Of a stretch of 64,000 nucleotides of DNA, positions 6,392-11,802 are shown piece by piece (the stretch's first letter is position 1; every line of letters starts with the position of its first letter). The translations under genes and the position numbers were made by a program. This DNA is from Candidatus Aldehydirespiratoraceae bacterium. GTDB lineage: Bacteria; Actinomycetota; Acidimicrobiia; Acidimicrobiales; Aldehydirespiratoraceae. Location of the stretch: contig OZ244898.1 in the NCBI GenBank assembly GCA_965221585.1, forward strand, positions 810,527 to 874,526, read 5' to 3'. The notes under the pieces were generated by a model, which was not told where the DNA came from, ran no database searches, and saw only the letters and a program-made list of their open reading frames with translations.

Positions 6392-6697
6392 TCAGTCGGA
6401 TGCAGGCAGGGTCTTCGGCTCGGCGACGCTCAGGAGGGTCCCGGATACGGCGATCGAACCGTCACCGCCCTTGGTGGCCAGCAGTTCGACTGTGGCTTCG
6501 GCGTTGGTGTAGCGCTTACCGAGAAGGGTGCCCTCCGCCGCGTCCGAAGCGGGCGCTCCGCCGATCTCGGCGGTTCCAGCGGCAACCATGGCAGCACCTC
6601 CGCAGGTCAACTCGGTGTCACCGTCGCCTTTCACCACTATTACTTGCGTGGTGCAGACTGTGGACTGGAAGCGTGCACCGGGCTTTAGTTCGACCAT
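6392..6697 (-). CDS. small conserved hypothetical protein
   Basis: 101-aa ORF placed tightly just upstream of the ligase gene on the same strand. Its pattern C..QVIVVK...L.CGG..M...LGKRY...LL.TKGG resembles small proteins I recall next to actinobacterial acyl-CoA synthetases. Confidence 0.45.
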   Translation of the reverse strand: MVELKPGARFQSTVCTTQVIVVKGDGDTELTCGGAAMVAAGTAEIGGAPASDAAEGTLLGKRYTNAEATVELLATKGGDGSIAVSGTLLSVAEPKTLPASD

Positions 6698-6803
6698 CGT
6701 TTGGAGCTCCTAGGCGTTGGCTGGTGCTCCATTGTGCCGCGAAGCCCGCACCAGACCAAAGCCGCGACTGTCCTCTGCACGCTTGTGGCGGTTTCGACCC
6801 TTT

Positions 6804-6858
6804 ATTTCGGAAGGTTATTACGATATTCTTCCGAAATGGTGGAAGTTTCGGAAGGTTA
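6804..6858. promoter_or_regulatory. operator-like repeat cluster at the Fic gene start
   Basis: There is a perfect 10-bp inverted repeat, atttcggaag (6804-6813) and cttccgaaat (6828-6837), with a 14-bp AT-rich spacer. The 13-bp direct repeat tttcggaaggtta occurs at 6805-6817 and 6846-6858. The right arm overlaps the ATG at 6836. Confidence 0.4.
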
Positions 6859-7972
6859 CGGGTACGCGGTCGAATCCGACTGGAATGGGCGAAAGGTCCA
6901 GGCCTGGGTCCCTTCCCCTCTACAAGAGCGCCCCATGGAGCTGTCAGCCGCCGCAGTGAGGGCCAGCGAACGGGCATGCGCCGCTTTGAGGCTTGCAGAT
7001 GCCCGGTTGCCGAGCGAATGGGAGGCCTTGGCGAGGCTTCTGTTGCGCAACGAAGGTGTGGCGTCTTCGGGCATTGAGGGATTGCGCGAACCCATCGAGT
7101 CTGTGCTGATCGCCGAGAGAACCGACCAGGGCGGAACGGCGGGTTGGGTTGCCGACAACTTGGTGGTGATCGACTGGGCGTTCGAGACTACCGGCGAGCC
7201 GGTTGCAGTCGGCACGCTGCATCGCTGGCATCGCCAGCTCATGCGGCACGGGCGGCTTCCAGCGGACATGATCGGGGTGTTCCGCCCGGCGTTGGGTTGG
7301 GTGGGCGGCACCTCACCGCTGGACGCTGCTTATGTTCCTCCGCCGCCGTCTGAAATACCGCGGTTGATGGACGATTTGATCGCCTTTGCCAACAGCGACC
7401 TCGAGGATCTCGATCCTGTGTCCCATGCGGCTGTGATTCACGCCCAGTTTGAGGCGATCCACCCCTATGGCGACGGCAACGGTCGTCTTGGACGGGTGAT
7501 GATCAGCCGAACTCTCAGGTGGCAGGCGATCACGAAACGGACCGTAGCCCCCATCAGCACGGCCATCGCCCGTGATCCCGGTGGTTACCTTTCCGGCCTC
7601 CACCTGTTCGAGCAGGGAATGCTCGACCCGTGGGTGATCTGGTTTGCTGAGATTGTGCAGAGGGCCGCTTCCACGACTCACCGGATCATCGATCAGACGA
7701 CTGCCTTGTTGGACCGATGGGAACAGGCGGTTGCTGGACTTCGAGCCGATCACTCGGCACGGGCCCTGCTTACACTTCTCCCTGCGTATCCCCTGCTCAG
7801 CGCCGGGGATGTGGCCGAGTTGCTCAGCATCTCCGAGCGTGCAGCCCGCACCACTCTGGCTGTGCTGGCCGGGTTCGGCATCCTGTCGCCGATCGAAGTC
7901 TCAACGTCGACCCCAGGCCGAAACCGCCACTGGTTCGCCGCCCCCGACCTCCTCCACCTCTGGGGCTCATGA
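6836..7972 (+). CDS. Fic family protein (class II type with an N-terminal inhibitory motif and a C-terminal wHTH)
   Basis: Fic active-site motif HPYGDGNGRLGR. Upstream SSGIEG fits the (S/T)xxxE(G/N) auto-inhibition motif. The C-terminal LSAGDVAELLSISERAARTTLAVLAGFGIL looks like a winged helix. Confidence 0.85.
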   Translation: MVEVSEGYGYAVESDWNGRKVQAWVPSPLQERPMELSAAAVRASERACAALRLADARLPSEWEALARLLLRNEGVASSGIEGLREPIESVLIAERTDQGGTAGWVADNLVVIDWAFETTGEPVAVGTLHRWHRQLMRHGRLPADMIGVFRPALGWVGGTSPLDAAYVPPPPSEIPRLMDDLIAFANSDLEDLDPVSHAAVIHAQFEAIHPYGDGNGRLGRVMISRTLRWQAITKRTVAPISTAIARDPGGYLSGLHLFEQGMLDPWVIWFAEIVQRAASTTHRIIDQTTALLDRWEQAVAGLRADHSARALLTLLPAYPLLSAGDVAELLSISERAARTTLAVLAGFGILSPIEVSTSTPGRNRHWFAAPDLLHLWGS

Positions 7973-7999
7973 CAGACCCTATGTCTAGACTGCGGCCCT

Positions 8000-10276
8000 A
8001 TGCCGCCGACGCTGTACAGACCCACCGACTATCCGTTAATCCTCCTGATCGAAGAGATAAAGAGAGGGGAGATCGCTCTGCCCGACATTCAGCGACCGTT
8101 CGTCTGGTCGTCGGCCAAGGTGCGCGACCTGTTCGACTCCATGTATCGGGGATACCCGATCGGCACGCTGCTTCTGTGGGAAACCGGTGCAGAAATCAGC
8201 ACTCGCCAGATTGGCGGCGGAGAGCACGACCGGGTCCCGAAGCAACTGATCGTGGACGGGCAACAGCGCCTTACCTCCCTGTTCGCGGTGATCACTGGGG
8301 AAAAGGTGCTCACCAAGTCGTTCGAAAGTCGCCAGATCCAGATTGGATTCAAGCCGTCGAATCAGACGTTCGAGGTGGCAGACGCTGCCATTCGAAGAGA
8401 CCCCGAATTCATCCCCGACATCGCTGAACTATGGAAGGACCGCTACCGAGCCACGGTGCGTTCGTTTCTTGCAACGCTGACCGAGAGCCGAAGCGAGGAG
8501 CTGTCCGAAGAAGAGGAAGAGGTACTTGAGAGCCGAATCGACCGAGTTCGTGACCTCAGGGACTTCCGTTTCCAGGTCATCCAACTGAACGCGAATGCTG
8601 ACCCGGAACAGGTTGCCGACATTTTCGTTCGGGCTAACTCACAGGGCGTAGACTTGAATCAGGCAGATTTCATCCTGACGCTAATGTCGGTCCACTGGGA
8701 GAAGGGTCGTAGAGAACTTGAGCAGTTCTGCCGGGACGCCGTTGATCCCGCAGTACGAGGCCCGTCACCGAAGAACTCGTTCATTGATCCGAAACCCGAC
8801 CAGCTGCTGAGGGCGAGTGTTGGCCTCGCCTTCCGTCGGGCTCGCCTGCAACATGTCTACAGCATCCTCAGGGGCAAGGATCTCACTACCGGCGAGGTAT
8901 CTCTTTCTCGCCGGAACGAACAGTTTGAGCGACTGCGCTCGGCGCAGGACCAAGTGCTGGACCTCACCAACTGGCATGAGTTCCTCAAGTGCTTGACCCT
9001 CGCCGGATTTCGAGGGCGACGGATGATCACATCTGACACCGCCTTGATCTACTGTTATGTCATATGGCTGATCGGCCGGTGCGACTTCGGTCTGAGCGTC
9101 TCTAAGCTTCAGACCGTTGTCGCGAGATGGTTCTTCATGGCCCACACGACCGGTCGCTACACGGGGTCAAGCGAAACTTCGCTGGATGCAGACCTCGGAC
9201 GGATCAACTCTCTGGAGCCGAACGACGGTGAGGCATTCTGCGCCGAGCTTGACCGTCAGATCAAGGCGAACTTCACAAACGACTACTGGGAAGTGTCGCT
9301 CCCGACCCGGCTCGACAGTTCATCAGCCAAGTCTCCGGCCCTCTGCGCCTACTGGGCCGCGCTCAACGTGCTAGACGCGGAACTTCTGTTCAGCAGCTTC
9401 AAAATGAGAGACATGTTGAAACCTGGCGAGAACGCTCCTCGGTCGGTCGAGCGCCATCACCTGTTCCCGAAAGCTCATCTGGGTGCCAGGGGTATCACCG
9501 GAACTAGACAGGTCAATGCGATTGCGAACATGGCTTTCTTGGACTGGCCGGACAACTCTGACATCGGGGCTGATGACCCGATGGAGTACTGGCCGAGAGC
9601 GTCTGGCCGTCTGAACCCCGAGCAACTGCAACGACAAGTCGGTTGGCACGCGCTTCCCGTCGGCTGGGAGCAACTGGATTATTCGGGTTTTCTTGAGAAG
9701 CGGCGAACGCTGATGGCAAGAGTGACCCGTGACGGCTTTGAGCGACTGTGGGACGACCCGAGCGGAGACCACACACTGTCCACATTGGTTGACCTGTTGG
9801 CTGCAGGGGAATCTCAGACAGTGGAGTTCAAGTCCACGGCTCGCGTCAATCTGCACACCAGCCAGGTCGACAAGAAGATCGAACATGTCATCGCTAAGAC
9901 GGTCTGTGGTTTCCTCAATGCCGAGGGAGGAAAACTCCTGATTGGAGTGGACGACGACGCGAACGTGATTGGACTCGGCGATGACCTGGGGGCGCTGGGA
10001 CGCAAACGCGACCTCGACGGCTATGAGCTCTTTCTGCGTCAACTCCTCGATAACACGCTGTCGTCTCCGACCGCTGCAACGGTGCGAATCCACTTTGAGT
10101 CCCATGCTGGCAGCGATGTCTGCGTCGTGACTGTCGCAGCCTCGGGCAAACCTGTGTTCTCGAAGGCCGCTGAGGGAGGAGGGTCCCCGTCTGAGTTCTG
10201 GGTACGAATCGGCAACGCTACCAAGCAGCTACATGGCGACGACATGATGGACTACCATGCCGACCACTGGGACTAG
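8000..10276 (+). CDS. GmrSD-like type IV restriction-type nuclease (DUF262 + DUF1524/His-Me finger) fused to a C-terminal Schlafen/AlbA_2 domain
   Basis: N-terminus: LPDIQRPFVW...YRGYPIGTLLLWE...IVDGQQRLTSL (DUF262/ParB-like). Middle: ERHHLFPKAHL...NAIANMAFLDWPDNSDIG (HNH-like DUF1524). C-terminus: ESQTVEFKST...GFLNAEGGKLLIGVDDDANVIGL (AlbA_2). Confidence 0.8.
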   Translation: MPPTLYRPTDYPLILLIEEIKRGEIALPDIQRPFVWSSAKVRDLFDSMYRGYPIGTLLLWETGAEISTRQIGGGEHDRVPKQLIVDGQQRLTSLFAVITGEKVLTKSFESRQIQIGFKPSNQTFEVADAAIRRDPEFIPDIAELWKDRYRATVRSFLATLTESRSEELSEEEEEVLESRIDRVRDLRDFRFQVIQLNANADPEQVADIFVRANSQGVDLNQADFILTLMSVHWEKGRRELEQFCRDAVDPAVRGPSPKNSFIDPKPDQLLRASVGLAFRRARLQHVYSILRGKDLTTGEVSLSRRNEQFERLRSAQDQVLDLTNWHEFLKCLTLAGFRGRRMITSDTALIYCYVIWLIGRCDFGLSVSKLQTVVARWFFMAHTTGRYTGSSETSLDADLGRINSLEPNDGEAFCAELDRQIKANFTNDYWEVSLPTRLDSSSAKSPALCAYWAALNVLDAELLFSSFKMRDMLKPGENAPRSVERHHLFPKAHLGARGITGTRQVNAIANMAFLDWPDNSDIGADDPMEYWPRASGRLNPEQLQRQVGWHALPVGWEQLDYSGFLEKRRTLMARVTRDGFERLWDDPSGDHTLSTLVDLLAAGESQTVEFKSTARVNLHTSQVDKKIEHVIAKTVCGFLNAEGGKLLIGVDDDANVIGLGDDLGALGRKRDLDGYELFLRQLLDNTLSSPTAATVRIHFESHAGSDVCVVTVAASGKPVFSKAAEGGGSPSEFWVRIGNATKQLHGDDMMDYHADHWD

Positions 10277-10494
10277 CACATATCGGAATTACGGTCCGTC
10301 GTGATTCAAGGACGGAGCCTTGAGGACTCAAAATAGGATTCGTCCAGTCTTCAAAATGAAATACGGACAGTTGCCCATTTTCTGTCTGACAGCCAGCTAG
10401 CAAGACGTTAGCGTTGGGTCATGGCGGGCACCCTGCTCAAGACAGGCGACCAGCACGGTGAGATTGGCGATCGGTTGCATTTGCGTCGGATCAG

Positions 10495-11802
10495 ATGCCT
10501 GTGGTCGGACTAGTGGTCGGTTCGCAGTCCTTGTCGGGGTTTGATGGCGATCTCGTGGCGTGGGCGTCGAGTGGCGCGATGCACTTGACCGGCCGACGTT
10601 GCGGCGCACCATCGCCAGCCCCGGCACACGTGGCTACAGCCATGGCCGCGGTGGCCGATGATCTCGCGCGGCAGACCACCCGTTGGGGCAGCGCCGTGTC
10701 TGTAGACGGACCAGCACTGTTGGGTGAACGCGCGGCGTTCACCGGAATGGAACGCAACGGCGACACGTCTGTGGGCGGCTCGGCCCGTTTCGTTCGAGCA
10801 GCTGATGGCCCGGTGGTGCTCAACCTTCCCCGGCCCGAGGACATCGAGTCGCTTCCTGCGCTTGTGGGCCAATCGTTGAGTGCGGACGACTGGTCGTCGA
10901 TCGCTGCTGGCATCGCCAAGCTCAACAGTGCTCACCTTGTGGAGACGGCAAGGCTGCTCGGGATTCCGGCGGCGGTTCCCTCGAGCTATCCGTTGCCCGT
11001 GGCCACTCCTGAGCGGGTGCTTCATCGCGGCATCCCCCGAACCGTGGTTGATCGGCCTCTGGTGGTGGACCTGACTTCGCTGTGGGCCGGCCCCCTGGCC
11101 GCTGGGCTGCTCGCTGATGCGGGCGCACGGGTTGTCAAAGTGGAAGGCGCCGGTCGTCCTGACGGGGCGCGCAGAGGAACCCCAGGGTTCTTCAACCTGC
11201 TCAATCACGCCAAGGAGTGCGTGGAGGTCGACTTCTCGAATGCCGACGATCGGGCGTTTCTGCGCGGCTTGCTCAGAGCCGCGGATCTGGTGTTAGAAGG
11301 GTCTCGGCCCAGGGTCATGGAGCAGTTGGGGATCGATCCTCACGAACTGGCCGACACGGGTGTCTCCTGGTTGTCGATCAGTGCGTATGGCCGGACTGGC
11401 GATGCGGCGTTGCGGGTTGGATTCGGTGACGACACGGCAGTGGCCGGGGGTCTCTGGTTGGCTGGCGATCCGCCCAACTTCGTCGCTGACGCCGTGGCTG
11501 ACCCGATCGCTGGCCTGGCCGCGGCGGCGCTAGGCGCGCGGCTGCTCGCCGGGGAGCAGGCGGCGGTTGCGGAGGTGCCGCTGGCCCGAGCCGCCGCTTG
11601 GGCTAATGCCGAGGTGCTGAAGGCTGCCGTTGATTCGGCGCTGCGCCGAGATGGTGACCGGTGGTCGCTTCAGGTCGCCAGCGAATGGCTGCCGGTGTCG
11701 CTGCCGAGGCACCGAGAGGTGCAGGCGGAGGCTGCGCCGGTCGGCAGCCACGACGGTCCGCTCAGAGCCGAATTTACAGCGTGCGCCTTTGGTAGGAGAT
11801 AG
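10495..11802 (+). CDS. family III CoA-transferase (CaiB/BaiF) with an N-terminal extension
   Basis: VVDLTSLWAGPLAAGLLADAGARVVKVEGAGRPDGAR. The start codon is uncertain. Confidence 0.7.
   Translation: MPVVGLVVGSQSLSGFDGDLVAWASSGAMHLTGRRCGAPSPAPAHVATAMAAVADDLARQTTRWGSAVSVDGPALLGERAAFTGMERNGDTSVGGSARFVRAADGPVVLNLPRPEDIESLPALVGQSLSADDWSSIAAGIAKLNSAHLVETARLLGIPAAVPSSYPLPVATPERVLHRGIPRTVVDRPLVVDLTSLWAGPLAAGLLADAGARVVKVEGAGRPDGARRGTPGFFNLLNHAKECVEVDFSNADDRAFLRGLLRAADLVLEGSRPRVMEQLGIDPHELADTGVSWLSISAYGRTGDAALRVGFGDDTAVAGGLWLAGDPPNFVADAVADPIAGLAAAALGARLLAGEQAAVAEVPLARAAAWANAEVLKAAVDSALRRDGDRWSLQVASEWLPVSLPRHREVQAEAAPVGSHDGPLRAEFTACAFGRR

Follow-up and report, generated by a model that had tools for sequence, protein, structure and literature searches.

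A Fic gene and a DUF262-Schlafen gene, linked in one clade of sponge-associated Acidimicrobiia, are probably independent modules of a decaying accessory islet

Anatomy of the islet

We analysed a Fic gene and the nuclease-type gene directly downstream of it in a genome of Candidatus Aldehydirespiratoraceae bacterium (assembly GCA_965221585.1, contig OZ244898.1, positions 810,527 to 874,526). This 64,000-nt stretch is referred to as the window, and coordinates are window positions. The initial annotation had described the second gene, which encodes a 758-aa protein, as GmrSD-like and had considered the two genes as possible partners. The pair lies in an inserted islet, its linkage is restricted to one clade, and within that clade either gene is found intact after the loss of the other. 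The following features were recognized:

6392 to 6697, − strand: left flank, gene for a conserved 101-aa Acidimicrobiia protein, which served as site marker
6766 to 10546, no strand: inserted islet of about 3.8 kb, relative to the empty site in related genomes
6804 to 6858, + strand: operator-like repeats, with an inverted repeat ATTTCGGAAG-N-CTTCCGAAAT over the Fic ATG
6836 to 7972, + strand: gene for a predicted class-II (SoFic-type) Fic AMP-transferase of 378 aa, with an N-terminal inhibitory helix and, at the C-terminus, a winged helix-turn-helix domain (wHTH)
8000 to 10276, + strand: gene for a 758-aa protein with DUF262, a BrxU-like middle part and a C-terminal Schlafen/AlbA_2 nuclease domain
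10277 to 10423, no strand: low-G+C spacer left by a deletion
10424 to 10507, + strand: 3' end of an otherwise deleted AAA_14/DUF4143 gene (PADLOC PDC-S01)
10495 to 11802, + strand: right flank, family III CoA-transferase gene

Both open reading frames (ORFs) occupy the + strand at the coordinates first assigned to them, and 27 nt separate the Fic stop codon from the start of the 758-aa gene. The view that the two genes interrupt a run of CoA-metabolism genes was also borne out: genes for enoyl-CoA hydratase (ECH), an AMP-ligase and the 101-aa protein lie to the left of the islet, and a Pfam scan of the window showed that the family III CoA-transferase gene on the right is accompanied by genes for a carboxyltransferase and PhyH. 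With the 101-aa gene as marker, the site was found empty in the related loci L171/L172 and L175/L176, where 120–140 nt lie between this gene and the CoA-transferase gene, so that the islet is an insertion, as the initial annotation had supposed. Homology of L171 to the window ends at 6765 and restarts at 10547. As homology to the empty sites begins only at 10547, the CoA-transferase ORF probably has its true start further downstream than 10495.

The 758-aa gene (58.1% G+C) and the tail that follows it (53.3%) are poorer in G+C than both flanks (65%), with the Fic gene in between (63.5%). We looked for att-like direct repeats bounding the islet and found none. The host lineage is of the sponge-symbiont type within the Acidimicrobiia. 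No sigma-70-like promoter was found, nor any terminator above the shuffle expectation, whether between the Fic and 758-aa genes or downstream of them. Because no promoter-like or terminator-like site separates the two genes, they are likely to be co-transcribed by read-through over the 27-nt spacing. A search for RNA sequencing runs covering the region retrieved none.

The Fic protein and its candidate operator

The ATG at 6836 agrees with the length of the Fic homologues (378–380 aa). The protein matches Pfam Fic (7e-16) and, weakly, Fic_N (6e-4), and it aligns over residues 20–374 with positions 5–356 of the 361 in the PADLOC SoFic model (3.5e-60). The active-site motif HxFx(D/E)GNGRxxR is present as HPYGDGNGRLGR and does not vary among 15 homologues with identities as low as 58%. 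The inhibitory motif (S/T)xxxE(G/N) is found in the same polypeptide, N-terminal to the Fic core, as SSGIEG (S77-S78-G-I-E81-G82); it is conserved in the same number of homologues, with S77, S78, I80 and E81 invariant. SoFic chains in the PDB align to residues 164–358, and the wHTH chain 9z71 aligns to the C-terminal residues 302–362. The description of an auto-inhibited Fic protein with a C-terminal wHTH is well founded on the conservation of this motif and on these alignments. In the PDB profile search, the best solved relative was 7CB8 (1.5e-61), followed at a distance by SoFic (about 2e-21); a literature search for 7CB8 yielded nothing relevant.

SoFic defends against phages as a single protein, through an abortive toxicity that depends on AMPylation (PMC12249575), and it has been reported to AMPylate EF-Tu and to bind its own promoter (bioRxiv 10.64898/2026.07.09.737422). 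The Fic protein studied here resembles SoFic of S. oneidensis, EcSofic of E. coli and the related autoregulator CccR in its full-length match to the PADLOC model, in the S/TxxxE(G/N) inhibitory motif, the HPxxDGNGRxxR active site and the C-terminal wHTH, and in an operator-like palindrome at its own start, in line with the reported own-promoter binding. It differs in being only distantly related to SoFic, with 7CB8 as its nearest solved structure. Whereas a 47-aa AS1 is found downstream of EcSofic (PMC12249575), no AS1-like small ORF follows the Fic gene of the islet.

Besides the inverted repeat over the start codon, an extra, third copy (TTCGGAAGG) lies within Fic codons 4–7. Three of the four TTCGGAAG sites of the whole window are clustered at 6804–6858. 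The arrangement TTCGGAA-N16-TTCCGAA, which occurred in 18 of 5000 random 120-nt windows, is retained in most distinct loci with a Fic protein of at least 57% identity (L081, L083–L085 and L088–L096, besides the window), regardless of whether a GmrSD-like gene lies downstream. We regard the palindrome as a candidate autoregulatory operator for wHTH-Fic proteins, by analogy with the own-promoter binding reported for SoFic and CccR (bioRxiv 10.64898/2026.07.09.737422). It would mark Fic as a self-contained, autoregulated module.

The 758-aa DUF262-Schlafen protein

The initial annotation had assigned DUF262 and DUF1524 to the 758-aa protein. The former was retrieved (Pfam GmrSD_N, 1.7e-33, residues 16–226). 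The latter was not: Pfam GmrSD_C (DUF1524) had no match in the protein or in the isolated fragment, and hhalign against a DUF1524 protein revealed no similarity. A Schlafen domain had been overlooked (Pfam SLFN_AlbA_2, 1.7e-17, residues 604–744). Among 32 homologues, down to 48% identity, the NTPase motif DGQQR (D86-G-Q-Q-R90) is invariant, and the motif R485-H486-H487..N506..N510 is invariant or nearly so. The Ex4ExK motif (E604-SQTV-E609-F-K611), in which E604, E609 and K611 are invariant in these homologues, aligns with ESTHVEFK of SLFN14 in the PDB profile search. That search matched the N-terminal part to BrxU 7P9K (3.6e-13) and the C-terminal part to SLFN14, SLFN8, SLFN12 and SLFN11. In an AlphaFold2 model (pLDDT 84), residues 485–510, with the RHH..N..N motif, fall within a strand-helix-strand region. 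Foldseek with this model ranked BrxU at the top over 661 columns (E 7e-13, with a TM-score of only 0.28–0.35), followed by the AlbA_2 protein 3LMM and then SLFN13. Plasmid-borne relatives mostly span residues 1–585 only, and the Schlafen domain is therefore an add-on to a BrxU-like core. By these profile and model comparisons, the 758-aa protein joins a BrxU-like DUF262 core to a Schlafen nuclease domain at its C-terminus.

Compared with the BrxU/GmrSD type IV restriction enzymes (DUF262 plus DUF1524), the protein shares a DGQQR-bearing DUF262 and an alignable predicted fold, and its RHHLFP..N..N motif is positioned where BrxU has DUF1524. In contrast to those enzymes, it carries the extra Schlafen domain and no recognizable DUF1524. 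DUF262-Schlafen fusions are a described class that comprises 1.8% of prokaryotic Schlafens; a member of this class, EcoSlfn7 from E. coli UC4224, is by itself sufficient to protect E. coli from T7 and other phages (PMC13056530). The 758-aa protein was likened to EcoSlfn7 by the described domain architecture and not by sequence: both have an N-terminal DUF262 and a C-terminal Slfn domain with Ex4ExK, and the 758-aa gene, too, is a single gene in variable, defence-like neighbourhoods. Unlike EcoSlfn7, it belongs to an actinobacterial and acidobacterial family that is very conserved. Relatives occur in at least 593 species genomes. Family members from Acidimicrobiia, Streptomyces, Mycobacteriaceae, Microbacterium and Acidobacteriota share 60–70% identity, and a Thiotrichales metagenome-assembled genome also holds a relative. 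This high conservation suggests that the family has recently spread widely by horizontal transfer while under strong constraint. A further fusion variant is represented by P0113–P0115, DUF262-Schlafen proteins of 1004–1005 aa with an extra N-terminal domain of about 245 aa (Pfam PF28530).

The remnant of a third gene

The stretch downstream of the 758-aa gene had been described as an AT-rich, non-coding tail. Its low G+C content was confirmed; its non-coding nature was not. Positions 10424–10507 encode the last 28 residues (389–416 of 417) of an AAA_14/DUF4143 protein found intact in L081, with 79% identity (tblastn of the L081 protein against the whole window, E 2e-8), and the tail is therefore the scar of a deleted third gene. 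The remnant overlaps the annotated start (10495) of the CoA-transferase ORF. The first 27–45 nt or so of the spacer upstream of it (10277–10423) match the spacer that follows the DUF262-Schlafen gene in L081 and L084. The intact L081 gene contains AAA_14 and DUF4143 domains and matches PADLOC PDC-S01, an ATPase regarded as a single-gene defence candidate, at 1e-143; L170 likewise has an intact copy. The window differs in that only the last 28 codons were kept, and PDC-S01 itself is a candidate system without a known mechanism.

States of the site in related genomes

The site is occupied in different ways in close relatives. Fic, DUF262-Schlafen and AAA_14/DUF4143 genes are all present in L081, and the first two in L084. 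L170 has retained PDC-S01 alone, with a 54-nt 3' scar of the DUF262-Schlafen gene; Fic and the remainder of the latter were deleted. In L173, Fic is intact, the DUF262-Schlafen gene has been cut down to residues 1–62 plus 707–758, and a DUF222/HNH gene has been inserted. Fic was the gene lost elsewhere: L002 and L003 retain only its last 17 or so codons ahead of an intact DUF262-Schlafen gene, and in L082, where the latter is also intact, only a trace of Fic is left.

Some of these loci have additional features. The DUF222/HNH gene of L173 (L173:1561-6796) encodes 542 aa on the opposite strand, between Fic and the DUF262-Schlafen gene, and the internal deletion in the latter amounts to about 640 codons. 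Downstream of the DUF262-Schlafen gene of L002 (L002:9312-11070), there is a fragment of a Fic C-terminus with about 70% nucleotide identity to window positions 7547–7850, and a 416-aa NYN-domain protein is encoded after it.

Fic orthologues with 61–77% identity were also detected at other sites without a DUF262-Schlafen gene (L085–L089). The one in L085 (L085:586-9998; 76% identity) lies directly after an imuB-dnaE2-SRAP mutasome cassette, and after it come three genes on the same strand (186, 282 and 444 aa) without Pfam or PADLOC matches. In L088 (L088:6001-8329), the orthologue (77% identity) has, 200 nt downstream, a gene for a 331-aa protein whose sole domain is GmrSD_C/DUF1524 (3e-6), a second, independent case of Fic adjoining a nuclease gene.

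Distribution and phylogeny of the pairing

A census of the 758-aa gene covered 80 species-representative genomes out of the at least 593, with 73 loci that had enough upstream sequence. An orthologous Fic gene was directly upstream in only one of these 73 informative loci (L001). A census of Fic in Joint Genome Institute (JGI) metagenomes covered 80 loci with 34–76% identity, of which 38 were distinct and had at least 1 kb of downstream sequence; no GmrSD-like gene was detected near Fic in any of the 80, nor in the 38 informative ones. Neighbour clustering over 84 loci of the 758-aa gene revealed no conserved neighbour, and the biggest clusters, PDC-S01 and Fic, comprised 6 and 5 loci, respectively. 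Among 42 Fic relatives, the downstream genes were heterogeneous, with about half on the opposite strand. The DUF262-Schlafen (GmrSD) tree places every copy that is linked to Fic or bears a Fic scar within a single clade of 11 gene copies with 100/100 support, and the Fic tree is compatible with a single origin of the linked copies.

Linkage is confined to one clade and either gene occurs intact without its partner; therefore, the juxtaposition arose once and the genes have since been retained independently. The conserved Fic-GmrSD partnership that had been suggested was not found (1/73 GmrSD loci, 0/38 Fic loci, a single clade), and census and tree alike place the pair in one lineage, the distribution that the initial annotation had itself named as speaking against a partnership. 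No Fic-GmrSD system is described in the literature searched, and the data give no reason for defining one.

A conserved two-gene system of Fic and GmrSD is thus not supported, as there is no co-occurrence beyond one clade, and neither is mutual dependence of the two, as each is intact after the loss of its partner (L002, L003, L082 and L173). A conserved GmrSD–PDC-S01 pair was also considered, but only 6 of 84 loci have it. The idea, prompted by L088, that Fic regulates varying downstream nuclease genes from a conserved upstream position was rejected because of the heterogeneity of the downstream genes.

Weighing the explanations

We consider it probable, at roughly three chances in four, that this is an ordinary, decaying accessory defence islet, in which three independent single-gene modules became neighbours once in one clade and were then lost independently. 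Several points weigh against this reading. The block of Fic and DUF262-Schlafen genes is contiguous in five linked loci, with a spacer of 26–47 nt, down to 72–77% nucleotide identity. Two chromosomal sites harbour it: site A, in the window and in L081, L083 and L084, and site B, in L001, where TauD/ABC-F lies on one side and an aspartyl-protease-like gene on the other. The block was thus kept as a unit and possibly moved as one, and neither a promoter-like nor a terminator-like site was found between its genes. Furthermore, Fic reaches only 67 bits against the NCBIfam SoFic equivalog cut-off of 550 and is, judged from its sequence, a member of a distant subfamily and not a SoFic equivalog. The defence role at this locus would follow from family membership only.

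The conserved spacing, the contiguity at two sites and the lack of a promoter or terminator consensus between the genes would fit a lineage-specific functional operon, in which the Fic operator/promoter controls both genes, Fic acts as a regulator of the nuclease or as a second abortive arm, and the pair outperforms either gene alone. The conserved operator at the Fic start and the binding of promoter DNA by wHTH-Fic proteins (10.64898/2026.07.09.737422) would fit as well. However, the two genes became linked only once, in one clade, the DUF262-Schlafen gene is intact after the deletion of Fic (L002, L003 and L082) and Fic after the destruction of the DUF262-Schlafen gene (L173), the partner is absent in 72/73 informative GmrSD loci and 38/38 informative Fic loci, and Fic genes without the linkage show the operator with equal conservation. 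Such an operon is therefore unlikely. We also find it improbable that an autoregulated SoFic-type promoter captured a DUF262-Schlafen gene, with EF-Tu-AMPylation and nuclease arms co-induced and the resulting layered operon moved between the two sites.

It is very unlikely that these are not defence genes, that is, that Fic is a housekeeping regulator of translation and transcription acting by reversible EF-Tu AMPylation, that the DUF262-Schlafen protein has another nucleic-acid role, and that their position is the neutral outcome of insertion at a recombination-prone spot. SoFic is an efficient deAMPylase and has been proposed to act as a physiological regulator (10.64898/2026.07.09.737422), the 758-aa family shows unusual conservation across Actinomycetota and Acidobacteriota, and the Pfam scan detected no known defence genes in the immediate flanks beyond Fic, DUF262-Schlafen and PDC-S01. 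Nevertheless, presence and absence at the same site are patchy among close relatives, the 758-aa gene has a low G+C content, both families have hypervariable neighbourhoods, the PADLOC matches comprise SoFic, HEC-05/PDC-M55C and PDC-S01, and experiments have demonstrated defence by proteins of both architectures (PMC12249575, PMC13056530).

A toxin–antitoxin-like couple, with the 758-aa protein as immunity to a Fic toxin or the reverse, is hardly credible: Fic toxins often have an adjoining partner (class I Fic proteins have antitoxins and EcSofic has AS1; PMC12249575) and the gene spacing is tight, but this Fic bears its own class-II inhibitory helix, both genes are commonly alone and intact, the 27-nt spacer has no small ORF, and no known Fic antitoxin resembles a multi-nuclease protein of 758 aa.

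Proposed mechanism and significance

If the islet does consist of independent defence modules, the first would be a SoFic-type Fic protein that represses its own promoter through the wHTH, at the palindrome over the start codon, by analogy with SoFic and CccR. Once freed from auto-inhibition, it would AMPylate a host target (EF-Tu in the case of SoFic), translation would stop and infection would be aborted. In the second module, the BrxU-like, nucleoside triphosphate-binding DUF262 core may sense or bind nucleic acid and drive a nuclease activity, with the catalytic centre in the His-Me-like RHH..N motif, in the C-terminal Ex4ExK Schlafen nuclease or in both. The third would be the AAA_14/DUF4143 ATPase (PDC-S01), deleted here down to its last 28 codons. 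The analysis establishes the layout of the islet, its domains and conserved motifs, its insertion, its restriction to one lineage and its independent decay, whereas the activities named are predictions from homology, and the defence role, the autoregulation of Fic and its co-transcription with the 758-aa gene are likewise putative. The three genes would have become adjacent once, in the ancestor of one clade, with independent losses since; neither Fic nor the 758-aa protein would need the other.

The Fic and DUF262-Schlafen genes are new instances of already known kinds of gene, and the result is mainly a negative one: that two genes of defence type lie close together in a single genome cannot be taken as evidence that they form a system. 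The site amounts to a natural experiment, in which an empty state, the full triple and three different partial deletions are found at one position, and none of the SoFic-type Fic, DUF262-Schlafen and PDC-S01 genes depends on the others for its retention. TTCGGAA-N16-TTCCGAA is a conserved candidate operator for one wHTH-Fic subfamily and may be used for testing the proposed autoregulation. With this analysis, the DUF262-Schlafen class also gains a very large actinobacterial and acidobacterial family of high conservation, with relatives in more than 590 species genomes.

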